A DNA stretch of 64,000 nt from Alphaproteobacteria bacterium. Its GTDB lineage: Bacteria > Pseudomonadota > Alphaproteobacteria > Rs-D84 > SZUA-605. Of this stretch, positions 21,658 through 41,096 are shown in pieces; the first letter of the stretch is position 1, and each line of letters starts with the position of its first letter. The notes below the pieces were generated by a model, which ran no database searches, had not been told where the DNA came from, and saw nothing but the letters and a program-made list of their open reading frames with translations. Position numbers and translations under genes: made by a program. The DNA lies in contig JAVBPW010000001.1 in NCBI GenBank assembly GCA_031549385.1, forward strand, positions 192,001 to 256,000, given 5' to 3'.

Positions 21658-22701
21658 TTACTTTCCTTGTTTAATAAATTGACGTGTTAATGCTGTTAAT
21701 TTGAAAAAATCTCTTACATTTATTCCTGGTGAACCCATTATTTTTGAATGAGGAGCTACATCTGCCATTATACCTGATTGTGCTCCTATTTGAGCAAATG
21801 AACCTACTGTTAAATGTCCACCCAAGCCAGCTTGGCCTCCACATATCACAAAATCACCAAGAATTGTATTTCCTGCTAATCCTACTTGCCCACATAGTAA
21901 ACAATGTTTTCCTATTACACAACCATGACCTACCATTACAAGGTCGTCTATTTTTGTACCTTGGCCTACAAATGTATCGTCTAATGCACCTCTGTCAACA
22001 CATGAACCTGCACCAACTTCTACATCATCTTCTAATATTACTCTTCCAATTTGAGGCACATATTTATGCCCTTGTTCATTTGATTCATAACCAAAGCCTG
22101 CTGCACCTATTTGACATAATCTGCTAAATACACAATTATTTCCAATAATTGCATGAGAAATTACTACAAGTGATTCTATTTTAACATTATCGCCAATTAT
22201 GCAATCTGATTTAATTACAGAATTTGCTTGAATTATTGTATTTGAACCAATTTCTACATTATCTTCAATGACTACATTCTCACCAATAAATACTTTTGAT
22301 TTATCTTTAAATTTTACTGATGGTGATATTTTTGCAGATGAAGCAATTGAGTATTCTGTTTCTTCTTTATACATTACTTCCAATGCTTTTAAAAATGCTT
22401 GTTTAGGATGTGAAGTTATTAATCCTGTTACATTCTTTGGTAAGTATTCTAAATCACTTTCTTTTACAAAAACAGCTAATGCTTTTGTGTTGTCTAAATC
22501 AACTTTTATTGTTGATATGAATTTTTGAACGAATCTTCCAACTTCAAAAAAACTTATATCGCTTTTTGTGGCACTTTTTAATGATGCGCAACCTGTTACA
22601 ATTTGAGAACCTGATTTATTATCTGTTAAATTAGCATTACAGAGCTTTGAAAGCTCTGTTAATGTAATTGTCTCAATTGTAAAGAATCTTTTGTCAGACA
22701 T
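21658..22701 (-). CDS. lpxD: UDP-3-O-acylglucosamine N-acyltransferase
   Basis: Hexapeptide repeats, [33 protein letters not shown]. Confidence 0.95.
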
Positions 22702-23960
22702 TATTTAGAACAACTTTGTAACTTGTTTGATAAATTATTAATATCATCACTTATATTACGGTATGAAGTTTTTCCAAATTCATCCTTCATAGTATATGTG
22801 ATTGATTTCTTTTCGAGATTTTTATGATCAAGAACAGTTCTTAAAATCTTCGCATCTCTTTTAATTCCATATGAGTTTTGACATGCACATTGATTTCTTG
22901 CTTCTTTTACTATATCCCAAGATTTTGATGCTCCGAATATATCTGCTATATCTTGGTCTGAATAAAACATACATAGTTCGCCAGCTTTATAGAAATTATA
23001 ATCATCAATTAAGAATTTATATGTATTATCTTTTCCATATTTTTCTTTCATGATATTTGTTATATATGTTCTGCAACAACTTTCAGATGTTTCTAATATT
23101 CTTTTGTAAGCATTCTTTGCATATGATAAATTTGGATCTGATAAACATACTGGAGATGGCACTGATGATAGATATGCTAATCCATCTACAATAGCTCCAT
23201 CAACTAATTGACCTTCTCTTTTTGGATTTACTTCGTATGTTACTGGTTTTGTTTCCCATACTTTTTCAAATTTTTCTTTTTCTTGTCTTCTTATTTTAGC
23301 TATAGCTGCATTTTGTTGTTCTTGTTCTGGAGATAAAACAACAACAACTGGTTGTTTTTTTTCTTCAATTTGTTTTAATGGAGACTTAGTTGGTCTTTTT
23401 GTTGCACAACATTTATCTTTTTTATTTTCACAGCAACAATCTTTTGCTTTTGCCTTTGGTTTAGCAGCTGGTTTTGGTTGTGGCTTTGGTTTAGGTTTTG
23501 CTTTATTGCAACAGTCTGGTTTTTTAGGACATGTTGTTTTGCATTCTGTTTTACATTCACAAGCAACAGCTTTTTTTGCAACTGGCTTCTTTTTTGCTGG
23601 AGGTGTTGCTTTTTTCTTTGCAATATCGCAACATGATTTTTTATCAGCACATTTCTTTTGGCATGGTTTTTTATTTCTGTTATCCAAAATTATATATGTG
23701 TCAGCTTTGTTATTACTTTTTAACTTAGGTTCTTCCTTTGTTGTTGTAATAACTTCTGTTGTTTCAATTTCTTTCTTACCACTGTTATCATACTCTTTAG
23801 TTTCTTTTATATCTTCATATGTTTCAACTTTCCCATTTTCAACAGTTCTAATTTCTGTTGCTTCAATATAATGTGAAGAATGACCATATAAATCATATTC
23901 TGGCGGCAAGTCGCAGCCAGATATGATTAGTAAAGAAACTAAAGGTAGATACTTTTTCAT
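22701..23960 (-). CDS. Hypothetical lipoprotein with Lys/Cys/Pro-rich central region
   Basis: Lipobox IISGC at residue 16; CC/CxC clusters among KK-rich repeats; stop codon overlaps the lpxD start. Confidence 0.75.
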
Positions 23961-24743: not shown

Positions 24744-25157
24744 ATGACAATAAGAAAAATCACAATTGAAGAAAAAAAAGAAATCTTTTTGAAAATCTTA
24801 GAATCGACAGGTACTATTGTTTCTGGTTATGTTGCTAAAAACCAGTTAAACAAAAAAGAGTTAACAGATATTATAAATAGTGTTTATGATACATTAGAAA
24901 ACATATCTTTTAAAACTGTTAGATTGCATACTACTAATGTTGCTCCTGATAAAACTATTACTCCTGATTATATTGTTTGTTTAGAAGATGGAAAAAAGCT
25001 TAAAATGTTAAAAAGATATTTAGCTCGTAAATATGGCATGACACCTGAACAATATAGAAAGAAATGGAACTTAGATGACGATTATCCTATGACTGCTCCA
25101 AATTATACTAAAAAAAGATCTAAACTTGCTAAAAAAACTGGGTTGGGTAAAAAATAA
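24744..25157 (+). CDS. mucR: MucR/Ros family transcriptional regulator
   Basis: IVSGYV..N, ITPDYIVCLEDGKKLKMLKRYL...MTPEQYR.KW.L..DYPM.APNY...RS.LAK..GLG. Confidence 0.96.
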   Translation: MTIRKITIEEKKEIFLKILESTGTIVSGYVAKNQLNKKELTDIINSVYDTLENISFKTVRLHTTNVAPDKTITPDYIVCLEDGKKLKMLKRYLARKYGMTPEQYRKKWNLDDDYPMTAPNYTKKRSKLAKKTGLGKK

Positions 25158-25985: not shown

Positions 25986-27032
25986 TTAGAAATTTCTTCT
26001 GTATCCAACAAATATAGATGTATTAAACATATTATTTGTTCCAATTAAATCTTCTGAAATTTCATTGTTTCCAATACCCCATGTTACTAATCCTAAATTA
26101 GTAAACTTAACACCCATTTCAATTGAAGATGTTTGACCTAATACATAACTTGTTCCTGCAATGATATTCCATGCAAATGATGTTTCAATTTTTGTATATT
26201 CTGGATAGTAACAACTTGAATTCCATTCACCAGTGGAAGCACAACTTGAATACTTAAAGAATGACCCACCTGATGGATCAGACATTTCACCTTCTGGATC
26301 AAGTAGCGTTGTCTTTGTTTGGTTAATAGCAATACCAACTCCTACTCCAACAAAAGGAATAAAATCACCCTTTTTTGCTGTTTCACCTTTTTTATTAAAA
26401 TCATAAATAACATTAAACATAAATGTAGATGAATTAATATCACTTTCTACAGCTGTTGTAAGATTATTATCTATATTTGCTTCATAAGCACCATCTGATG
26501 CGTCTTGCATATAACCTTTTAAGAAAGGTGATGATTTATATTTTAAATTAAGATATTGAGCAGCTTCAACTTCAATTCTTATATTTGAATCTTGTTTTAC
26601 ACGTCCTCCAAATGCAAAAGAAAAATATCCCACATAAGTTTTTAAATCTTCACCTATTTCCCAATCATGGAAATTAGCAATTGAAGGATTAAGACTTATC
26701 AATTCACCTTCTGCAGGAGCATTATCATCAGTTCCTGGAGGGTTTTGGTATCTTGGACCATAGAACACTCTTTGAGCACCTGGAGTTGTTGCACAATCTA
26801 GAGCACTTGATGTACCTTCTCCACAACGCCATACTTCATCATAATAAACTTGCATACGATTAATTTCATTACTTGGAGAATTCATAAAATATGCAAAACC
26901 ACCTCGGATAGCTATATAAATAAATCCACCTTCACCCTTATTTGGTGTACCAAATGTACGAAGACCAGCTTGAGCAAATGCCCCACTGGTTGCAAAAAAA
27001 GCAAGCAAAGCTATTGATAATGATTTCTTCAT
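25986..27032 (-). CDS. Outer-membrane beta-barrel protein (opacity/OmpA-barrel-like) with long loops
   Basis: Signal peptide, RIEVE, MFNVIYDF, PFVGVGVG, FAWNI.AG, terminal GYRRNF. Confidence 0.75.
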   Translation of the reverse strand: MKKSLSIALLAFFATSGAFAQAGLRTFGTPNKGEGGFIYIAIRGGFAYFMNSPSNEINRMQVYYDEVWRCGEGTSSALDCATTPGAQRVFYGPRYQNPPGTDDNAPAEGELISLNPSIANFHDWEIGEDLKTYVGYFSFAFGGRVKQDSNIRIEVEAAQYLNLKYKSSPFLKGYMQDASDGAYEANIDNNLTTAVESDINSSTFMFNVIYDFNKKGETAKKGDFIPFVGVGVGIAINQTKTTLLDPEGEMSDPSGGSFFKYSSCASTGEWNSSCYYPEYTKIETSFAWNIIAGTSYVLGQTSSIEMGVKFTNLGLVTWGIGNNEISEDLIGTNNMFNTSIFVGYRRNF

Positions 27033-27857: not shown

Positions 27858-30800
27858 TTATTTGTTAGGTAAATCTGGTATTGCCATTGTAGCACCTTCG
27901 TTTACTTTTGTTTGGCTTCCAGCTTTATTTGTCCACCAGCATCCGTAAGAATTTGTCGGCCATCCCATTGTAGCTTCATCACAAGTTAATGTATTGCTTG
28001 ATGTTACTACTTTAGATCTTGATTCATAGTTTTTACCAAAAAGTTTCTTCTTTTTGTATCCACGTGAGTTAACTGTAAAGTTACATGTGTTATTACTCCA
28101 CACTTGTCCTTGTTCAGCACACCATGTTTTATTTGCCTCAATTTTTCTTGCAGCTTCTGCAGCTTGAGCAGCAGCAGCGTCTGCGGCAGCAGCAGCAGCG
28201 TTAGCAGCTGAGTCTTCAGCACTTCCTACTGCTTCTACTAATACTATTCCTGCAACTGATCCTGGAACTGCTTTTTCTGCATCGTATTCTGCTTTTGTTA
28301 AACATGTTTCAACACCTGTTAATGATACACCAGAGAAACGACATCCACAATTTTGTTTTGCTGTGTCAAACATATATCTGTCTGTTCCTTTTGCTAAACA
28401 TTGTGCTTCTGCTGCAGTATCTCCTAATTTTGCTATTCTGTTTCTAATTGGTAACCAAACAGTATCTAGCTTTGGAGTTGATGCTGAAACTGATGATGGA
28501 TATGTTCTTTCTATTGTATAAATAGGAGCTTTTGTTCTTGAGTATGTTCCTACTTCAACTTGCTTTTCAATAACATCCCATTCGCACATTTCAGCAGCAT
28601 CAGCTGTTGCTGAGAATTTAAGTTTATCGATTGTTAAAGTTGTACATCCTACATAACCTTCACCGCAATTTTGCTTCATGTAATCTTCTACTTTCTTCAT
28701 ACATTCTGCATCTGTGTATCCGTATTTTTTAATAATAGAATCTGAGAATGTTTGCCAGATTGCATCAGGATTTGCCGAACGATTTAATTGAGTTACACAT
28801 GAAAGTTTTGCGCTGTCAATTTCTGTTCTGTTTCTGCATTCTGCATAATCAGATCCACAGATTTTATCCATACATGTTGTTAATCCATTATATACTTCTG
28901 AGTCTGATACGTCTGTTAGATTATCATTAATCATAGAGTTGATAATATCATCCCAGATTGCATTTGTGATTTCTGTTGGAGATGATGCCCATGTGTTTGC
29001 ATCTGCATTTTCACCACTGTATGTGCTTGCACATTTATTGATAATATCTCCACAAGCGGTCTTTGCACGATTTTGAACATCTGCTAAGAACTTAGCTTCG
29101 CCTTTTACTGCTACTGTTCCTGCTGTTAAACATTTTCCAAAGTCTGCACCACATTCTTCAGCTACACAAGATCTTGATTGCTTAAAGCATTCTGAACCTG
29201 ATAATTGTGAACGTGATAGAGCTAGTCTTGTAAATGTTGCCCAGAATTCGTCTTTTTGAGTTTGTGTTTTTAATTCTGTACATCTTTCCATTGAGCTTTC
29301 ACAGAATTTTCTTCTGTCGTTTAATGTAGATTGATTGTAACATTGAGCATATCCTTCACCACATACTGCTTCGTTTTGCATACATGAAGCCATATCTGTT
29401 AAACATTGTGAATTGCTTCTTCCTGCACGTGCTATTGCATTGCCTTTGAAAGCTTTCCAAATAACATCTGTTTGTGCGTCTGTTCTTAAACTTTCACTTG
29501 CAACTGCTGGCATGTTTGCACCTTTACATTGAGCAAGTACTGATGAACAATTAATCTTTCTTGCTTCCATAAGTTCATCTGTATAACATTTTTCAAAATT
29601 CTTTCCACATAAAGAATCTTTTTCCATACAGTTATAAAGTTCTGTAGCACATTGTTCTGCATTGTATTTGTTTGAACTTTCTAAATCATATTTAGATGCT
29701 GCCATTTGATATTTGTTATATGCATTTTGTTGAACCACTGTTAATTCTTTTATCTTTGTATCAATTTCTTTTGAATATGCACGGCAATCATTTCCCACTG
29801 ATGTACCATAAGAAGATTCAACTCGTTTACGTGATTCAGTTGGACATAATTCTAATACTGTTGCACAATTTTTGTTTGCATCTTTTAATAATGCATCACC
29901 TTCTTTTCTTACTGTCTTATTTGATACTTCACCAAGATAAAGATCATAGATATCAATACTGTCTAAATCGAATCCATCTTTTTGTGCTACACCTAAACCT
30001 TGTTTGCTTAATTCTTCAACTGTCACTTCTTTTAAAGCTGTTGCAAAATCTTTACCTTCTAAATCAGCTTTCTTTTTTGCAAGTGGTAAATATTCTGTTT
30101 GAGCTGTTAATTGGTTTATTGTTGCAACTATACCTTCTCTTTTTGTTTCTTTTTCATTAAATCCTGACATTGACCCTGAACATAAACATCTTCCCATGAT
30201 AGAATCTTCTGCTGTATCTTTACAGAATGTATCCATACATGTGTAGTATTCTTCACGACATGCTTTTTCATCAGCTAATTGAGCTGCTACTTGTTCTTTT
30301 GTTTTTGTTACTTCTGTTTTTGTTCCATCAATTCCAGCTGCTTTTAACGCATCAGCTACTGATGTTGTTGAAGTAGTAGTTGTAGTTGCTGCTGTTCCTG
30401 CTGTTGCTGCTTTAACTGTTAAATTTGAAACACCTGCACGGCGTGATACTGCTGATCGTGCTTCACTTGTTGTTGCTACAGTTCTTCCAGTTCTTGCGGA
30501 TCTTGCACCTGCTGCTGTTGTACGAGTACCTGTTGCTACTCCTCTTGCTGAACGTGCACCTGCTGCTGATGTTGTTCCTCTTGCTGAACGTGCTGCACCA
30601 GTTGCTGCGGCTGGAGCTGCACCTCTTGCACTTCTTGCACCGGATGTTGTTGCGGCTGGGGCTGCACCTCTTGCACTTCTTGCACCAGATGTTGCTGTTG
30701 GAGTTGCTACTCCTCTTGCACTTCTTGCGCCGGATGTTGCTGTTGGAGTTGCTACTCCTCTTGCTGGAGCTGCTGATCTTGCCTGTCTTGTAGTTGTTAC

Positions 30801-30902
30801 AGTAACTTCTTCTTCAATTATCTCTTCAACTTGGGCGAAAGATAGCGTTGAAATAGGCATTATTGCTAATGAAATTAGGAATATTTTTAATAATTTGTTC
30901 AT
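27858..30902 (-). CDS. Secreted Cys-rich protein with ARSAR repeats (paralogue C, 1014 aa)
   Basis: Signal peptide ending SFA, acidic patch, six RSAR motifs, CREEYYTCMDTFC...GRCLC core, about five Cys modules, C-terminal cap. Confidence 0.9.
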   Translation of the reverse strand: MNKLLKIFLISLAIMPISTLSFAQVEEIIEEEVTVTTTRQARSAAPARGVATPTATSGARSARGVATPTATSGARSARGAAPAATTSGARSARGAAPAAATGAARSARGTTSAAGARSARGVATGTRTTAAGARSARTGRTVATTSEARSAVSRRAGVSNLTVKAATAGTAATTTTTSTTSVADALKAAGIDGTKTEVTKTKEQVAAQLADEKACREEYYTCMDTFCKDTAEDSIMGRCLCSGSMSGFNEKETKREGIVATINQLTAQTEYLPLAKKKADLEGKDFATALKEVTVEELSKQGLGVAQKDGFDLDSIDIYDLYLGEVSNKTVRKEGDALLKDANKNCATVLELCPTESRKRVESSYGTSVGNDCRAYSKEIDTKIKELTVVQQNAYNKYQMAASKYDLESSNKYNAEQCATELYNCMEKDSLCGKNFEKCYTDELMEARKINCSSVLAQCKGANMPAVASESLRTDAQTDVIWKAFKGNAIARAGRSNSQCLTDMASCMQNEAVCGEGYAQCYNQSTLNDRRKFCESSMERCTELKTQTQKDEFWATFTRLALSRSQLSGSECFKQSRSCVAEECGADFGKCLTAGTVAVKGEAKFLADVQNRAKTACGDIINKCASTYSGENADANTWASSPTEITNAIWDDIINSMINDNLTDVSDSEVYNGLTTCMDKICGSDYAECRNRTEIDSAKLSCVTQLNRSANPDAIWQTFSDSIIKKYGYTDAECMKKVEDYMKQNCGEGYVGCTTLTIDKLKFSATADAAEMCEWDVIEKQVEVGTYSRTKAPIYTIERTYPSSVSASTPKLDTVWLPIRNRIAKLGDTAAEAQCLAKGTDRYMFDTAKQNCGCRFSGVSLTGVETCLTKAEYDAEKAVPGSVAGIVLVEAVGSAEDSAANAAAAAADAAAAQAAEAARKIEANKTWCAEQGQVWSNNTCNFTVNSRGYKKKKLFGKNYESRSKVVTSSNTLTCDEATMGWPTNSYGCWWTNKAGSQTKVNEGATMAIPDLPNK
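30600..30765 (-). repeat. 45-bp tandem repeat encoding ARSARG-x9 units
   Basis: CCTCTTGCACTTCTTGC recurs at 30622, 30667 and 30712. Confidence 0.85.
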
Positions 30903-30984
30903 CTCCAGATCCTTTAAAATTTTGTATACTTGGTTATTATATCATAATTTTCATATGTTTAAAAGTGCTTTTTGAAAAATAATA

Positions 30985-31025
30985 AAAAAAATAACCAGAA
31001 TTTCTTCTGGCTATTTTTATTTTTT
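30985..31025 (-). terminator. Terminator after paralogue B
   Basis: AAAAATAACCAGAA-tttc-TTCTGGCTATTTTT. Confidence 0.6.
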
Positions 31026-31031
31026 CATACT

Positions 31032-34000
31032 TTATCTGTATGGTAGAGCTGGGATTGATAAGTATTGTCCTTCTCTTACTGTTACACCATTTGGTAACCA
31101 ACATCCATATGCATTTGTTGAGAATCCCATGTAACTTTTGTTACAATACATTGTTGATCCTGCTGAGTAAACTCTTGTTCTTGTTTCATAACATGATTTT
31201 AAGTTCAAGAACCCACAACGTTCATATCCACGTGATGTTACTGTGAAGTTACATGTTGTACCTGTCCATGATCCACCATTTAGTGCACACCATGCTCTGT
31301 TGTTTGACACAACTTGAGCAGCACGAGCAATAGCAGCAGCGGCATCAGCAGCAGCTTTTGCAGCAGCAGCACTCATAGCTAGTTCAGCTTCAAGTTTTGC
31401 TCTTTCTGCAGCTACTTCAGCAGATGTTTTACATGATCCGTCAGATTTCATACCATTAACACAAGTACATGCTTCATTAGCCCATGTTCCTGATGAACCT
31501 GTACATTTTGTATATGCTTCTTTTGCTACACATGATCCATTTGATGCTAGTGAGTGACCAACTGGACATGAACAAGTTCTGTTTGTATCGTTCCATGTTC
31601 CTTTTGTTCCTGTACAATTTGTATATTCAGATAATTTTGTACATGATCCTTCTGCATTTGTTGTGTGTCCTACTGGGCAAGCACATTTATCACCTGACCA
31701 TGTTCCACCACTTGCATTACAGTTTGTTAAATTACCTGTTGCTTTACAGAAACTTAGAGAGTCTGTTGCATAGCCACTTGGACATGAACATGATGATCCG
31801 TTCCAATTTCCACTTGATGACTTACAATTGTCTTCTTTTGATACTACACAAGATGTTCCTTGTAATGTGTATCCTGTTGGACATGAACATGTTCTTGCAC
31901 TGTTATTCCATGAACCATTTGAACCTACACATTGTTGGTATTGAGGTAAGATTTCACATCTTGTTCCTGATAATGCATACCCTGTGTTCAAACAGCTACA
32001 TACTTTTGCAGAGTCATTCCATGATCCACTTGTTGCTATACAATCTGTGAATGCTGGCATAGCTCCACATTTTGTTCCAACCGCTTGTTGACCTGTTCCA
32101 TTACATAGGCATTGTTTCAATGTATTATTCCATTCTCCACCTGTTGACTTACAATCTGTGTATGTTGGCATGATTGTACATCTTCCAGATACTAGGTTAT
32201 ATCCATCTCTGTTGTCACAAGAACAAGTTCTGATTGCGTTATCCCACTTTCCGCCACTGTCACGGCATAATACATAGTTAGGATCTTGTGTACAATTTCC
32301 ATTTGAATAGTATGAACCTTCTGTTGTACATCTCTTTTGTCCTTCAGAGTCTCCTTGTGATACTACAAGTGATTTCAAGCTATCCCAAATTTGATCTGGA
32401 ACGTTTGTGTTGCTTTCTTCACCATTTTGTGAGTATACCATATTTTCGAAGTCACACTTTGATACAGCTTCTGCCATAGCAGCTGTTTTCTTTCCTTCAA
32501 TTTGACCTGTTCGACAATCATAGTAATTTGTTCCACAATTTGATTTCAAGTAACCATTTACCATTTCCATACATTCTTCAACTGTGTAACCCCAATCTGA
32601 TAAAGTTTTTTGTTTAAACTTAGCCCAGATTTCATCAGATCTTGCTGCACGCATTAAGTCTTCTGAACAGTTTGGTTTTTGTGATTCAAGTAATTTTGAA
32701 TTTCGGCAATCTTGGAAGAGCTTTAATTCATAGTTTCCTGTTGGATCAATATTATCTGGCAATTCTTGACCTGCTGCAATCGCTGTTTGTGCTGCTGCTT
32801 TTGCTTCAGCTGATAATTCAGTTTGTGTCTGTCTTCCACATTGCTTTACCATACATTGATATAGTTGTTCATAACTTGTTTTATCTGATGCGTCTGTAAA
32901 TGTATCTTTGAATAAAATTCCATTGATAATTCTTTCCCATACATTGTTTTCATCACTTGCATCAAGATATGTTCCTGCACAACGTTTGATTGTGTCTCCA
33001 CATTGTGTTTGAGCCATTTTTTTAACATCAGCTACAAATCCGTCTTTTGTCTTTGTTTCAGCTGTACCACTTGCACATTTTAATAAATCTTCACCACATG
33101 CTGTTTTTACACAAGACATAGATTGTTCAAAACATTGTTGTGTTGATAATTGTGATCTTGCTAATGTATTTTTCTTAAATGCTTTCCATAATACATCTGT
33201 ATTTGTTTCATCTCTTACTTGACCTTTTGCAAGAGTTGGCATATTAACACCTTGGCATTGATTCAATACTGATTTACATAATGGTTTCTTTGCTTCTAAT
33301 TCTGCGTCTGAGTAACAGTATTCTAAATTAATTCCACATACTGCTTCGTCTTTCATACATCTGTTCAAATCAGTTGAACATTGTTCTGCATTGAATTTGT
33401 TTTTAGTTTTCAAGCTGTATTCTGTATCTTTCATTTGATATTGGTTATATGCATTTTGTTGCACTACTTTCTTTTCAAAAATCTTTGCATCTAAATCTCT
33501 TGAATATGTACGGCAATCATTTCCTGCTAATGTAGAATAAGATTCAACTACTCTTGATTTTGATTCTGGACATAATTCTAATGCTGTTTCGCAATTCTTT
33601 TGAGCTTGCTTAAATAATGCATCACCTTCTTTTCTTACTGAATTCTTTGATACATCACCCATAAATACTTCAAAAATGTCTTGTTCACTTGCAAGACTTT
33701 CATTTGTTACACCTAGTTCTTCTAATTCTTTTGCTGTAACTTCTTTTAAAACTGTAGCAAAATCTTTTCCTTCAGCGTCAGCTTGTGCTTTTGCTGTATC
33801 AAGATTTTTTGTTTGCCATTGTAGTTGGTTTATATTTGCTACTACTTTATTTAATTCTTTTTCTTTTGCTGATTGATTTACTATTGAGCCTGAACACAAA
33901 CATCTTCCTATAACAGAATCATCTGCTGTATCTTGACAGTATGTATCCATACATTTTGTAAATTGTGTTTTACAAGCATCTTCATTAGCCATTTGAGTTG

Positions 34001-34742
34001 CTACTTCTTCTTTTGTTTTTGCAGTAACTGTTTCTGTCGATGAAACTAAATCAGAATAATTTGTTGTGGTTGATGTAGTTGTTGTAGTTGTTCCTACTCC
34101 AACTGCTGCAGCTGTTGCTGCACCCATTCTGCTAACTCCACTTCTTGCAGCTGATGTTCCACCAACTGTAGTTCCTGTTCTTGCTGATCTTGCTGTTGAG
34201 GCTCCTGTTGTGCCTCTTGCTGATCTTGCGCTTCTTGCACTTGATGTTCCGCCTGCAACTAATGCTCCGGCCGCACTTCGTGCTGAACGTGCTGTTGAGG
34301 CTCCTGTTGTGCCTCTTGCTGATCTTGCGCTTCTTGCACTTGATGCCCCGCCTTCAACTACTGTTGCTCCGGCCGCACTTCGTGCTGAACGTGCTGTTGC
34401 TCCAGATGCGCCTCTTGCACTTCGTGCAGATCTTGCTCCTGCTGTTGCTCCTGTTGCTGCTCCTCTTGCTGATCGAGCTCCGGCTGTTGTACCTGATGCG
34501 CCTCTAGCACTTCGTGCAGATCTTGCTCCTGCTGTTGCTCCTGTTGCTGCACCTCTGGCACTTCTTGCTCCACTTGCTGCGGCACCTCTTGCGCTTCTTG
34601 CACCTGCTGCTGAACCTTCTGTTCTTACGGTTCTTACAACTCGAACATCCTCTTCTATAATTTCTTCTTCCTGTGCGAAAGATACAGAATTAAACATAAA
34701 AGTAATTGATACTAATGATAATAATGCAAATAATTTCTTCAT
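31032..34742 (-). CDS. Secreted Cys-rich protein with ARSAR repeats and eight EGF-like 4-Cys repeats (paralogue B, 1236 aa)
   Basis: Signal peptide ending SFA, EEEIIEED, about ten ARSAR blocks, CKTQFTKCMDTYC...GRCLC core, Cys modules, C-x4-G-x-W...CxC...C repeats, C-terminal cap. Confidence 0.9.
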   Translation of the reverse strand: MKKLFALLSLVSITFMFNSVSFAQEEEIIEEDVRVVRTVRTEGSAAGARSARGAAASGARSARGAATGATAGARSARSARGASGTTAGARSARGAATGATAGARSARSARGASGATARSARSAAGATVVEGGASSARSARSARGTTGASTARSARSAAGALVAGGTSSARSARSARGTTGASTARSARTGTTVGGTSAARSGVSRMGAATAAAVGVGTTTTTTSTTTNYSDLVSSTETVTAKTKEEVATQMANEDACKTQFTKCMDTYCQDTADDSVIGRCLCSGSIVNQSAKEKELNKVVANINQLQWQTKNLDTAKAQADAEGKDFATVLKEVTAKELEELGVTNESLASEQDIFEVFMGDVSKNSVRKEGDALFKQAQKNCETALELCPESKSRVVESYSTLAGNDCRTYSRDLDAKIFEKKVVQQNAYNQYQMKDTEYSLKTKNKFNAEQCSTDLNRCMKDEAVCGINLEYCYSDAELEAKKPLCKSVLNQCQGVNMPTLAKGQVRDETNTDVLWKAFKKNTLARSQLSTQQCFEQSMSCVKTACGEDLLKCASGTAETKTKDGFVADVKKMAQTQCGDTIKRCAGTYLDASDENNVWERIINGILFKDTFTDASDKTSYEQLYQCMVKQCGRQTQTELSAEAKAAAQTAIAAGQELPDNIDPTGNYELKLFQDCRNSKLLESQKPNCSEDLMRAARSDEIWAKFKQKTLSDWGYTVEECMEMVNGYLKSNCGTNYYDCRTGQIEGKKTAAMAEAVSKCDFENMVYSQNGEESNTNVPDQIWDSLKSLVVSQGDSEGQKRCTTEGSYYSNGNCTQDPNYVLCRDSGGKWDNAIRTCSCDNRDGYNLVSGRCTIMPTYTDCKSTGGEWNNTLKQCLCNGTGQQAVGTKCGAMPAFTDCIATSGSWNDSAKVCSCLNTGYALSGTRCEILPQYQQCVGSNGSWNNSARTCSCPTGYTLQGTSCVVSKEDNCKSSSGNWNGSSCSCPSGYATDSLSFCKATGNLTNCNASGGTWSGDKCACPVGHTTNAEGSCTKLSEYTNCTGTKGTWNDTNRTCSCPVGHSLASNGSCVAKEAYTKCTGSSGTWANEACTCVNGMKSDGSCKTSAEVAAERAKLEAELAMSAAAAKAAADAAAAIARAAQVVSNNRAWCALNGGSWTGTTCNFTVTSRGYERCGFLNLKSCYETRTRVYSAGSTMYCNKSYMGFSTNAYGCWLPNGVTVREGQYLSIPALPYR
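34191..34550 (-). repeat. Nested 90-102 bp direct repeats in the ARSAR region of paralogue B
   Basis: Near-identical ~55-bp blocks at 34191/34290 and 34405/34495; 34-bp block at 34264/34366. Confidence 0.8.
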
Positions 34743-34817
34743 AAAAAAGCCCCTTCTCTTTTATCCTTTGCAAATAGTGTATCATATTTTGTAGTTGATT
34801 TAAAGTATAAACTGTTT

Positions 34818-36449
34818 TTATTTTACTTTATTTAGGACTTGAGTCTTAAAGCTTGACCAAACTGTTGCTTCTACATTCTTACAGTTTGAAAATACTGAAG
34901 AACAATTAATTTTGTGTGATTCAAGTTTTGCTTCTGTTTCACAATGTTGGAAAGTTGCTCCACAAAAATCATCGCTTTGCATACATGTACTTAAAGCATC
35001 AAAACATGCAGCAGCATCATACTTGTTGTCGCTTGCTGCAAGTTTTCTTTCTTTTTCTTGATATTGATTGTAAAGCTTTTGAATCTTTAAAGAATATTCT
35101 TTTTTCTTTACGCCTAATTCTTTTTCATACACACGACAGCTTTTTGCAACTTCGTTTGCATATATACCTGTTATGTATCCTCCAGTTACTCCGCTTGTTG
35201 GGCATAATTCTAAATATCTTGTACAATTATTATGAGCGTCTTTGTAAAGAGCTGCACCTTCTTTGATTTTGTCTTCTGGTGATGAAGTTCCATAATCTAC
35301 ATCATCATAATCTGTGACTTCTGCCAATTCGTTAAAACCTAATTCTGCTGCTATTTCTTCTGTGTATGCTTTATAAACATTACTTCCCAGTTTTCCACTT
35401 TGTCTTTTTACTTCTAACCCTGCAATAGATGATATCATCTGATTTATTCTTGATATCATTGTATCAAGTTCTTTTTTACTGTCTGCATAATCTTCATATG
35501 TTTTTGCACATAAACATCTTCCTATGATAGAATCTTCATCAACTAATTTATCATCACAATAATCATCCATACATTTGAAATATTGTTCCTGACATAATTT
35601 TGCATCTTTAACATCTATATTTTGAGATGCTGTTTCTGGTTCATGATCATAGTAATTTGAAACATAAGCTGTTCTTGAAGAAGTTGATCCAGATGAAGTT
35701 GATGCACTTCTTCTTGAAGAAGATGTAGGTGCAGTTGTACCATCTGTTCTTGCTGTTGCTGACCTTGCAGTAGATCCACCACTTGATGCACTTCTTGCCC
35801 CTGATGCAGTTGATTGTGGAACTGAAACTGTTATAGGCTCTGAACCCATTCCTGAACGAGCTACCGAACTGCCACCTGAAGAACCTCTTGATGACCTTGC
35901 TGAACGTGCACTGCTTTGAGTTGATTGTGTGGCAGTTGCCCCAGCAGATGAGTTTCTTGCACTTCTTCTTGCTGATGCTGATGAGCCACCTGTTTGAGTT
36001 GCTGGTTGCGCTCCACTTCCTCTTGCTGATCTTGCACTTGATCCTGTTGAACCTCTGGCACTTCGCGCTGATGATTGTCCTGTTGATGCACCAGCTGATG
36101 AACGAGCTGATCTTGCTGATGAGCCTGATGAACTCCTTGCTGAATTTTGAGCAGGTGCTGCGGCTTGAGACTGTCCAGTGCTTCCTCTTGCTGAACGAGC
36201 AGATGAACCTGCTCCACCTCTAGCACTTCGCGCAGATGAACTTCTTGTGCTTTTTCTTGCGTTTGGATCTTGTTCATCTTCGTCATCATCCTGGTTTGCT
36301 GTTTGAGATGGAGCAGAAGCGGTGCCTCTTGCTGACCTTGCTGATGACGAACTTGATCTGCTTGAAGTTCTGGAATATTGAGATAGAGCCGAATTTGTGA
36401 ATCCTGCTAGCACGACAAACAATATCAAAAATTTCAAACAACTTTTCAT
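34818..36449 (-). CDS. Secreted Ser-rich/Cys-rich protein with SARSAR repeats (paralogue A, 543 aa)
   Basis: Signal peptide, DDDEDE patch, eight RSAR motifs, CQEQYFKCMDDYC...GRCLC core, one Cys module, no C-terminal cap. Confidence 0.88.
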   Translation of the reverse strand: MKSCLKFLILFVVLAGFTNSALSQYSRTSSRSSSSSARSARGTASAPSQTANQDDDEDEQDPNARKSTRSSSARSARGGAGSSARSARGSTGQSQAAAPAQNSARSSSGSSARSARSSAGASTGQSSARSARGSTGSSARSARGSGAQPATQTGGSSASARRSARNSSAGATATQSTQSSARSARSSRGSSGGSSVARSGMGSEPITVSVPQSTASGARSASSGGSTARSATARTDGTTAPTSSSRRSASTSSGSTSSRTAYVSNYYDHEPETASQNIDVKDAKLCQEQYFKCMDDYCDDKLVDEDSIIGRCLCAKTYEDYADSKKELDTMISRINQMISSIAGLEVKRQSGKLGSNVYKAYTEEIAAELGFNELAEVTDYDDVDYGTSSPEDKIKEGAALYKDAHNNCTRYLELCPTSGVTGGYITGIYANEVAKSCRVYEKELGVKKKEYSLKIQKLYNQYQEKERKLAASDNKYDAAACFDALSTCMQSDDFCGATFQHCETEAKLESHKINCSSVFSNCKNVEATVWSSFKTQVLNKVK

Positions 36450-36525
36450 ATACTTTTAAAGTATATCATAGAAGCAGGTGCAAAAAAAGGTTTTTTTTGG
36501 GATTTATTGTGCTATGATTGAGGTT

Positions 36526-39937: not shown

Positions 39938-40940
39938 TTAAAAGTTATATCTTAATCCTAAATTGATAGAAACAGCATCAATTACATTGCTGCTTTCAAA
40001 TGTCACATCTGAATATATATTAAATGCTTTTGGAAGTTTAACATTTAACCCAGCGCTAACTTCAAATGTAGTTCCACTTAGGTCACTTGTGTAATCTTCT
40101 CCAGCATATGTTATATCTGTTTTTCCATCAAGTTCTTGAGCAACTGCTAATTCAACAAATGGTTCGTAAATAGTTTTTCCTATTTTTGTTCCATAGCCAA
40201 ATAATACTCCCGCTCTTGTTACAAGACTTGTTGTTGTGCCATATTCGATTTCATCACCAAATGATGTTGTGAAATCTTTTGCTGCTGCAAATGCATATGA
40301 TAATTCAACTTTTGGTTCTAATAAGAAAGCTGATGACTTTCCTGTTTTGAACTTTAATTGACGTCCAAATTCAGCACTGAATACTGTAAATTGACGAGAT
40401 GGTGAATAATCTATTGCTTGATTTGCGGCACTGTAGGTTGTCATATCCATATTTGAGAAAAAGCTTCTTAAAGTTGCATCCGCAAACCAGCCTTCTTTAT
40501 TTAACCATGTCATATAAGCACCTATACTTGGAGTACTTGCTGAACCTTCTGAATAAATTCCATTGACTATGTTTTGATCTAAATCAATTGACATATTTTC
40601 AAAACTTATTGTACTTGATACTAATTGAAAACAATTTAATGTATTTTGTGATGCAGTAAGCTTTATATTACTACCTTCACCTTTAATTGTTGAAGTAGTT
40701 GATAATTGTTGAAGACCATGAGCATCATTTTCATTAATTAACTGTTACATCATTTTTTATAGTTACAGTAGCAGATCCTGTTATATTTATACCAACATAC
40801 GGATTGTTGCTGAAATCTGTTTGGCCAGCAGTGTCGTCTGGTATTATAATGTCTCCTGTTACATCTAATTGTGTAGCTAATGAACTACTTGATGTGCCAA
40901 AAATGACTAGCATAAGACATATTATGCTTAGTTTTTTCAT
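39938..40940 (-). pseudogene. Autotransporter pseudogene (frameshift plus internal deletion)
   Basis: Signal-peptide ORF stops at GTT AAT TAA (40734). Removing a duplicated TAAT restores one frame through a short passenger into a partial autotransporter barrel (GAYMTW...GWFAD, LEP..EL, R.G...G, terminal GLRYNF). Confidence 0.75.
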
Positions 40941-41096
40941 GAAAATCTCCTTGTTTATCCTTTTATTCTAATAATTTTAACATATTTTTGATTTTGAAAC
41001 AAGGCTTTTTATGATAAAAATTCTTGCTGAAACTGAATTTCACTGTGGCTTTGAGAAGTTTGATGATTGATAATTTAAAAAATTTCATTTCTTACC

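Follow-up and report, generated by a model that had tools for sequence, protein, structure and literature searches.

Three tandem cysteine-rich paralogues from an order-specific, putatively exported protein family of alphaproteobacteria

Organization of the locus

The window analysed here is the whole stretch of 64,000 nucleotides taken from contig JAVBPW010000001.1 (assembly GCA_031549385.1), and all positions refer to it. On its minus strand lie three adjacent, co-oriented genes, which we call S543, M1236 and L1014 after the lengths of their products. The features of the locus are as follows.

36460..36470, minus strand: TATGATATACT, extended -10-like site, 11 nt 5' of the S543 start
34818..36449, minus strand: S543, 543-aa paralogue (open reading frame; AlphaFold model of aa 276-543)
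36381-36449, minus strand: S543 predicted signal peptide, aa 1-23
35625-36380, minus strand: S543 Ser/Ala/Arg-rich low-complexity region, aa 24-275
34821-35624, minus strand: S543 helical Cys core and first 6-Cys module, aa 276-543; cap absent
34776..34786, minus strand: TATGATACACT, extended -10-like site, 34 nt 5' of the M1236 start
31032..34742, minus strand: M1236, 1236-aa paralogue (open reading frame and alignment); predicted signal peptide aa 1-23, then acidic patch, ARSAR region and Thr run up to aa 246
34178..34617, minus strand: M1236 ARSAR-encoding tandem DNA repeats of 33/90/99 bp, 76-93% matches
33195-34004, minus strand: M1236 core, aa 247-516; more helical Cys modules downstream
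31431-32267, minus strand: M1236 array of eight 4-Cys repeats, each about 37 aa long, aa 826-1104
31038-31307, minus strand: M1236 cap, aa 1146-1235, preceded by an Ala-rich helix
30987..31018, minus strand: terminator-like hairpin with 14 pairs and a T run, separating the M1236 stop from the promoter of L1014
30936..30946, minus strand: TATGATATAAT, extended -10-like site, 34 nt 5' of the L1014 start
27858..30902, minus strand: L1014, 1014-aa paralogue (open reading frame, alignment and model of aa 405-1014); predicted signal peptide aa 1-23, then acidic patch, ARSAR region and Thr run up to aa 204
30588..30764, minus strand: L1014 ARSAR-encoding tandem DNA repeats of 45/90 bp
29481-30290, minus strand: L1014 core, aa 205-474; helical Cys modules until about aa 781
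27861-28142, minus strand: L1014 beta-rich cap, aa 921-1014, preceded by a low-confidence linker and a long helix
27827..27850, no strand assigned: bidirectional terminator-like hairpin directly past the L1014 stop

The original prediction, made by a model from the sequence alone, had described three collinear paralogues, and the open reading frames lie exactly at the coordinates listed above. The proteins share 34-54% identity, their three-way alignment is collinear, and a search within the own genome with S543 retrieved the two neighbours at E values of 3e-62 and 1.9e-54. All the motifs that it listed were found (CxxxYxxCMDxxC, GRCLC, KEGxAL..NC...LELCP, [DS]CRxY and NK[YF]xAxxC), apart from one residue in M1236, which reads VIGRCLC. 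The proposed number of Cys modules, from 1 to about 5, is roughly right, with the correction that the eight 4-Cys repeats of M1236 had not been set apart. As it also stated, the shortest protein stops past the first 6-Cys module and the two longer ones share a C-terminal cap, which measures about 80-90 aa (42% identity).

The ARSAR motif occurs 7, 10 and 6 times in the three proteins. The G+C content of the genes is 0.34-0.40, against about 0.29, and is probably raised by coding rich in Ala, Arg, Gly and Thr; horizontal transfer was considered as its source and rejected, because the family is inherited within its order.

Promoter-like sites and RNA contigs

The three extended -10-like sites share the sequence TATGATAYAMT, which occurs 19 times genome-wide. 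A special regulon defined by this site was rejected, given this number of copies and its resemblance to a consensus extended -10 element; the sites probably mark separate, strong promoters. Given a separate promoter-like site before each gene and a terminator-like hairpin within the group, we read the trio as independently expressed paralogues. The same study's RNA library yielded exact contigs, 175-502 nt long, over parts of all three genes, at a depth of 3-5 that may reflect carried-over DNA. The RNA run X3 was uninformative, as it contained only fragments of 19-24 nt matching contigs of other organisms.

Cysteine pattern and predicted fold

Cysteine makes up 5.5% and 4.1% of the two long proteins, compared with a median of 0.9% in open reading frames above 150 aa. 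The mature proteins contain 14 (S543), 68 (M1236) and 42 (L1014) cysteines, and these even counts suggest that the disulfides are intramolecular rather than cross-linking. The pattern is built largely from CX6C pairs, a spacing that recurs throughout (e.g. C286/C293, C409/C416 and C482/489/496/503). Among 151 sequences, 12 of the 14 core Cys columns are conserved at 98% or more, while the remaining two are lost together (54 of 54-56); all the conserved columns are present in the three proteins. The patterned cysteines emphasised in the original prediction are thus borne out. The genome encodes a DsbA-like protein with a transmembrane anchor and a CSAC site, and neither DsbB nor VKOR was found in this 97%-complete assembly. 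When the 4-Cys repeats of M1236 (aa 826-1104) were compared with Pfam, the best match was cEGF at E 0.063, with 13.6 bits against a cut-off of 26.6, so the repeats were not assigned to EGF-like or ephrin-receptor-like domains.

AlphaFold modelled the S543 core (aa 276-543) as an all-helical closed bundle of nine helices, in monomeric form, with a pLDDT of 84.3 and a pTM of 0.66, and the core cysteines fall in the predicted helices. In the model of L1014 aa 405-1014 (overall pLDDT 66) the C-terminal modules come out as helical, followed by a beta-rich cap whose blocks reach 86-93. Foldseek returned no row at E<=1e-3 for the S543 core. The best VIA row for the core was a designed coiled coil (Z 9.8, rmsd 11.5, 134 aligned), where the chance level for helical models is about 13. 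Searches with both models gave generic helical rows only, none of which spanned the cap, a part modelled solely within the 610-aa stretch; a specific structural neighbour of the helical core was found neither by Foldseek nor by VIA.

Family searches and distribution

No family match for the trio was obtained in Pfam, NCBIfam or PHROGs, the last of these giving no sign of a relation to phage tail fibres; by sequence, the PDB contained no significant match. The ESM Atlas returned no usable match for core or cap, and word-indexed protein searches with L1014 aa 200-1014 and with the cap found only the query itself. The blanks of the word-indexed searches reflect the limits of the index, because an exhaustive profile search (E<=1e-3) yielded 860 cluster representatives. 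Members of the family, as defined by profile A2, have a signal peptide, a low-complexity region of basic character and 12 near-invariant cysteines in the core; the three proteins match the profile at E values of 1e-68 to 1e-76 and have all of these traits. A scan of genome contigs with a five-sequence alignment gave 3 loci.

The family is present in 148 of 151 genomes of an alphaproteobacterial order, probably Rs-D84, whose genomes measure about 1 Mb, and in none of 298 genomes of the class outside it. It is order-specific among the genomes sampled and, in line with the original prediction, belongs to no described family. The number of profile matches varies within the order: one sister family has 1-3 profile matches per genome in 19 of 19 genomes, another family 7-16. 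Six homologues from one genus have a median identity of 65% in the core and 25% in the C-terminal rest, three of them being cut at the locus end and their orthology unproven. Of 26 relatives scanned, 2 carry domains of extracellular type (Flg_new and/or Ephrin_rec_like). The proteins have a conserved N-terminal base and variable distal parts, as the original prediction suggested.

Origin of the trio and gene neighbourhood

In the phylogenetic tree S543, M1236 and L1014 form one clade (bootstrap 100 for M1236 with L1014, 81 for the trio against the rest), whose closest relative is a single gene adjacent to rsmE in a sister genus, on a contig that ends soon beyond. This topology shows that a single ancestral gene next to rsmE was tandemly triplicated in situ, an event specific to this lineage. 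Orthologues of the family are syntenic across genera and families, and the neighbours of the trio include the envelope housekeeping genes skp, lpxD, fabZ and lgt. No assembly, usher or secretion genes flank it.

These data bear on the claim that the three paralogues join in one filament or host-contact apparatus, supplying its base, stalk and tip. Tandem groups of three family genes are also present in two further families of the order, and adjacent, co-oriented, collinear genes of graded length, whose products have in common a long helical region suited to lateral packing, would fit such an assembly. Nevertheless the trio is a recent local duplication, only one gene occupies the rsmE position in the sister genus, one main copy suffices in other lineages, each gene seems to have its own promoter with a terminator-like hairpin within the group, assembly genes are absent nearby, and the modelled monomer is already a closed bundle. 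We therefore set this part of the original prediction aside, and regard a hetero-oligomeric appendage as very improbable.

Export signals and the basic tail

All three N-termini fit the rules for Sec export and signal peptidase I (basic n-region, hydrophobic core, small residues at -3/-1), in agreement with the proposed export, according to a crude rule check rather than SignalP. No lipobox was found at any of them. The same rule was passed by 121 of 135 family representatives, and most of those failing it look like truncated gene calls. The Arg-rich N-terminal segment that follows has a net charge of +18 to +23 in the trio; across the family this basic tail carries a net positive charge in 131 of 132 representatives, with a median of +10, and contains 8.5% Arg, whereas the own proteome has 3.3% Arg and 9.3% Lys. 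In Pfam and NCBIfam the three proteins matched no beta-barrel anchor, transmembrane segment, cell-wall anchor or known sorting domain, and at E<=1 no Type IX secretion C-terminal domain or other C-terminal sorting tag.

A signal peptide combined with no anchor would also be expected of soluble effectors that are released, for instance through a secretin system, and bind or act on the membranes of a partner cell or host. The genome encodes a type IVb-pilus-like cluster with a secretin, which is possibly one route through the outer membrane; related systems are known to secrete colonisation factors in soluble form. Membrane-active toxins often have long helical hairpins, and ClyA was among the weak Foldseek rows, at a non-significant E of 0.85. 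Against this, Pfam, NCBIfam, the PDB and the structure searches revealed no similarity to toxin families, and a basic disordered tail with vertical, syntenic inheritance is more typical of a cell-bound component. Release of the proteins as effectors seems to us highly unlikely.

The proteins could instead form a scaffold in the periplasm or at the inner leaflet, as rigid disulfide-pinned rods supporting or spacing the envelope of these tiny cells, with the basic tail bound to peptidoglycan or phospholipid, a function likened to that of the chlamydial Cys-rich envelope proteins or of a Braun-lipoprotein-like spacer. This agrees with the near-universal presence of the family in the order, its synteny from genera to families, the essentially single main copy kept in one sister family, the position of the trio among skp, lpxD, fabZ and lgt, and the lack of a recognised outer-membrane anchor or secretion signal in Pfam and NCBIfam. 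It does not readily account for the modular and highly variable C-terminal regions, for the 7-16 matches per genome in one family or for the extracellular-type domains of some relatives. Even Cys counts point to intramolecular disulfides, and rod-shape and peptidoglycan genes are reported in the published account of the probable order, which makes a wall substitute unnecessary (PMC12306168). We consider the scaffold, in both of its versions, rather unlikely, and the leading alternative. It should be noted that no recognised feature shows outer-membrane crossing, which counts against a surface location, and that order-wide conservation, synteny and the well-conserved core fit a housekeeping periplasmic role equally well.

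Comparison with known systems

The chlamydial envelope proteins OmcB and OmcA, from a diderm with a small genome, are likewise very rich in Cys and Sec-exported, and their disulfides are believed to stiffen the envelope. OmcB, however, is beta-rich, while the trio core is modelled as all-helical; the Cys counts of the trio are even and its disulfides probably intramolecular. The probable order keeps its peptidoglycan genes (PMC12306168). None of the three proteins matched the Pfam families Chlam_OMP6 or DUF11 at E<=1.

A design that the trio may share is seen in the twin-CX9C and twin-CX3C proteins of the mitochondrial intermembrane space (CHCH proteins and small Tims): their Cys pairs are spaced to fall on one helix face, and opposing pairs staple two antiparallel helices under oxidising conditions. 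No homology to them was found, and the trio differs in that it is bacterial, Sec-exported and ten times larger, and in that its spacing is CX6C, not twin CX9C or CX3C; CHCH gave no Pfam match for the three proteins.

As paralogous surface families of helical-bundle rods, the trypanosome haptoglobin-haemoglobin receptor and VSG and the Borrelia outer surface proteins are also comparable. They are lipid- or GPI-anchored and have no sequence relation to the trio, and the weak VIA rows for the T. congolense receptor (4e40_A; Z 5.4, rmsd 8.2, 143 aligned) and Borrelia BBA14 (7zjc_A; Z 6.2, rmsd 4.8, 70 aligned) are far under the meaningful level for helical bundles. Fibrillar or stalk-tip adhesins, such as trimeric autotransporters and Flg_new-repeat adhesins, share with the trio a modular design, a variable distal end and paralogue expansion; the trio has neither a beta-barrel anchor nor a known stalk repeat, and its predicted stalk is a disulfide-pinned helical bundle.

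A model for the family

Weighing these data, we favour by a modest margin of belief the view that the trio consists of independently transcribed paralogues, produced by local triplication, whose family, so far undescribed and specific to the order, comprises helical proteins that are exported by Sec, stapled by disulfides and active at the envelope or the cell surface. After export, the membrane-anchored DsbA-like oxidoreductase would make the intramolecular disulfides, and these would fix antiparallel helices to one another as a rigid rod; the failure to find DsbB or VKOR counts against this step. The disordered, Arg-rich segment at the N-terminus, we purely infer, might hold the protein on an anionic envelope polymer, e.g. 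LPS or phospholipid. The conserved core would then act as stalk, and the variable C-terminal modules (6-Cys helical modules, 4-Cys repeats and beta-rich cap) would point outward, serving as a coat or in contact with the host gut or a partner cell, while S543 would represent the version with the stalk alone.

A bolder proposal is that the family forms the main block of a previously unseen kind of surface layer or attachment organelle, in which rigid rods held on the outer membrane by Arg-rich tails would carry twin-CX6C staples made in the periplasm without DsbB. It would be the defining structure of an entire order of uncultured, partner-dependent bacteria of the gut and would mediate contact with the cells on which they live. 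This we think unlikely.

The family combines a confidently modelled helical fold without a recognised relative with a repeating CX6C disulfide design. The probable order, Rs-D84, which includes Candidatus Enterousia, is uncultured, with genomes below about 1 Mb, and has been proposed to depend on other cells (PMC12306168). Near-universal in the order, absent elsewhere in the sampled class and expanded to many copies in genomes of 0.9 Mb, the family is a strong candidate for a structure that serves this dependent lifestyle.

Architecture of the three proteins

The three open reading frames of the original prediction were confirmed exactly:

34818-36449, minus strand, S543 (543 aa)
31032-34742, minus strand, M1236 (1236 aa)
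27858-30902, minus strand, L1014 (1014 aa)

They are paralogues, as had been proposed: S543 matches the other two at E 3e-62 and 1.9e-54 in a search of its own genome, and a collinear three-way alignment contains all the proposed motifs with a single trivial deviation. Each protein begins with a predicted Sec-type signal peptide without lipobox, followed by a low-complexity stretch of 189-260 aa, rich in Arg, Ser, Ala, Thr and Gly, that contains a run of Thr residues and 6-10 ARSAR units; the DNA behind these units consists of tandem repeats of 33 to 99 bp with 76-93% matches. The Cys-patterned region, namely the core and its C-terminal modules, comes next, and the mature Cys counts are all even (14 in S543, 68 in M1236, 42 in L1014). 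It was also correctly anticipated that S543 finishes at the first module and that M1236 and L1014 add further modules and a common C-terminal cap; this first module has 6 Cys, and the cap is about 90 aa long. Residues 826-1104 of M1236 are eight 4-Cys repeats.

The expectation that no known family would be recognized held as well, since the trio gave no match above noise in Pfam and NCBIfam; searches of PHROGs, PDB sequences and the ESM Atlas gave no match. Among 26 relatives scanned against Pfam, 24 carried no domain and two carried Ephrin_rec_like, one of them with Flg_new in addition. Only one of ten cluster look-ups returned a name, "hypothetical protein", and a full-text literature search by keyword and organism, which is blind to unnamed mentions, returned no paper on such proteins.

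Distribution of the family

A profile built from 12 cores was searched among 1.84 billion proteins and matched 860 cluster representatives (337-2338 aa) at E<=1e-3, 429 of them at E<=1e-30. At E<=1e-5 the family is present in 148 of the 151 genomes of the window's order.

Genomes with a profile match in each family of the order
f1: 1 of 1
f2: 1 of 4
f3: 19 of 19, 1-3 matches each
f4: 1 of 1
f5: 122 of 122, 7-16 matches each
f6: 3 of 3

The use of a profile matters, because a single-protein query missed family f3 entirely (0/16). Across a sample of the whole class, matches came from the window's genome and from two others of its order, and from none of the 298 remaining genomes. All sampled members of the order have genomes of 0.5-1.1 Mb, and the window derives from the gut metagenome of an invertebrate; this size and source fit the published description of Rs-D84 as gut bacteria below 1 Mb, with most biosynthesis missing and a suggested dependence on a partner (PMC12306168).

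Structure and cysteines

The S543 core (aa 276-543), modelled from a 60-sequence alignment, has nine helices, including two long ones of about 36 and 51 residues, plus one disordered loop (pLDDT 84.3, pTM 0.66). A Foldseek search of the PDB gave nothing at E<=1e-3, and the best hit of an independent structure search, a designed coiled coil (Z 9.8), is under the background for helical models. The model of L1014 aa 405-1014, built on 13 sequences only (pLDDT 66), passes from one small helical bundle to the next and then, by way of a low-confidence linker and a long helix, to a beta-rich cap (block pLDDT 86-93); its structure searches gave only weak helical rows, none covering the cap.

Across 151 sequences, 12 of the 14 core Cys columns are conserved at >=98%, and the remaining two disappear jointly (54 of 54-56). 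CX6C pairs within predicted helices account for most Cys, which we infer to be disulfide-paired. The genome, 97% complete, encodes a DsbA-like thioredoxin-fold protein (G000:C7:117175-118017) that is membrane-anchored and has a CSAC site; neither DsbB nor VKOR was found in it.

Origin of the trio and other members

A maximum-likelihood tree (LG+G4, 247 columns) of 25 cores selected among the retrieved ones pairs M1236 with L1014 (support 100) and splits the trio from all other cores (support 81). The closest outside sequence is a 975-aa gene of the sister genus that adjoins an rsmE homologue in divergent orientation, the same arrangement as that of the trio, on a contig that ends soon after. 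Because the trio groups together and this nearest outside gene shares the rsmE-side position, it follows that the trio is a local triplication. Two further families of the order also have tandem threesomes, at other sites. The original prediction took base/stalk/tip modularity to fit a hetero-oligomeric filament, adhesin or host-contact apparatus; we conclude that the trio is a lineage-specific expansion and not a three-part machine.

The complete core is encoded five times in the genome: by the trio, by a 719-aa gene with a syntenic orthologue in the sister genus (support 100) and by a 408-aa gene. Two relatives of 492 and 731 aa (G000:C7:35568-37046 and C7:413089-415284) lack the core and consist only of modules and a cap-like beta domain, after which comes a hydrophobic segment rich in Gly; this glycine-zipper-like segment is possibly the mark of a membrane-inserted form of the family. 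A recognisable cap is limited to L1014, M1236 and the 719-aa protein; judged by eye, sister-family proteins carry at its position a looser C..G..C.[FY].V.Y beta-type domain.

The same 0.93-Mb genome holds an unrelated second set of Cys-rich surface proteins (G000:C5:47516-55008 and C5:14711-22102): a tandem of four genes for exported proteins of 586-674 aa, with 7-9.5% Cys, composed of CxxCPxGxYS-type repeats with Thr/Pro/Lys-rich tails, and a 2463-aa Cys-rich gene nearby.

Expression signals

An extended -10-like site, TATGATAYAMT, lies 11 to 34 nt upstream of each trio gene start:

36460-36470, upstream of S543
34776-34786, upstream of M1236
30936-30946, upstream of L1014

The motif occurs 19 times in the genome, 13 times at 7-39 nt upstream of an ORF; in ten of these 13 cases the encoded protein has a signal peptide (four belong to this family, four are autotransporter-like, two are others). 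Terminator-like hairpins lie 3' of M1236 and, bidirectional, 3' of L1014. Exact contigs of 175-502 nt (depth 3-5) from an RNA library of the same study cover parts of all three genes and, short of proof, are compatible with their transcription. About 2.7 kb from the trio lies a MucR/Ros-type regulator gene (24744-25157, plus strand); such regulators control envelope and surface genes in other Alphaproteobacteria.

Envelope context and probable site of action

Concerning the neighbourhood, three further minus-strand loci of the window were noted:

39938-40967, minus strand, small autotransporter apparently split between frames (signal-peptide N-terminal piece 40734-40967; beta-barrel 39938-40744, Pfam Autotransporter, E 1.7e-23), pointing to a frameshift or to decay of the gene
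25986-27032, minus strand, 348-aa signal-peptide protein ending in GYRRNF, outer-membrane-barrel-like, no Pfam match
22701-23960, minus strand, 419-aa lipoprotein (lipobox LIISGC, Lys/Pro/Cys-rich middle, 5.5% Cys, no Pfam match), between skp (OmpH) and lpxD, where insertions are unusual

Elsewhere the genome has two TolC-like genes and a type IVb-pilus-like cluster (TcpQ, secretin, PilO-like, T2SSE ATPase, T2SSF platform; G000:C4:25331-37381); no link was found from either to the trio family. ComEC and a coupling protein of the VirD4 type are encoded next to the pilus-like cluster.

Of 132 representatives, 131 have an N-terminal tail with a net positive charge (median +10; for the trio, +18 to +23). 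The tail uses Arg, against the strong Lys preference of the proteome. In six homologues of one genus, which may not be orthologues and three of which are cut at locus ends, median identity is 65% in the core and 25% in the C-terminal rest. A periplasmic scaffold, instead of a surface role, is a serious rival; the most likely site of action is the envelope or surface. We conclude that these are exported, disulfide-pinned helical proteins of an undescribed, order-specific family, in which the base is conserved and the distal end varies.
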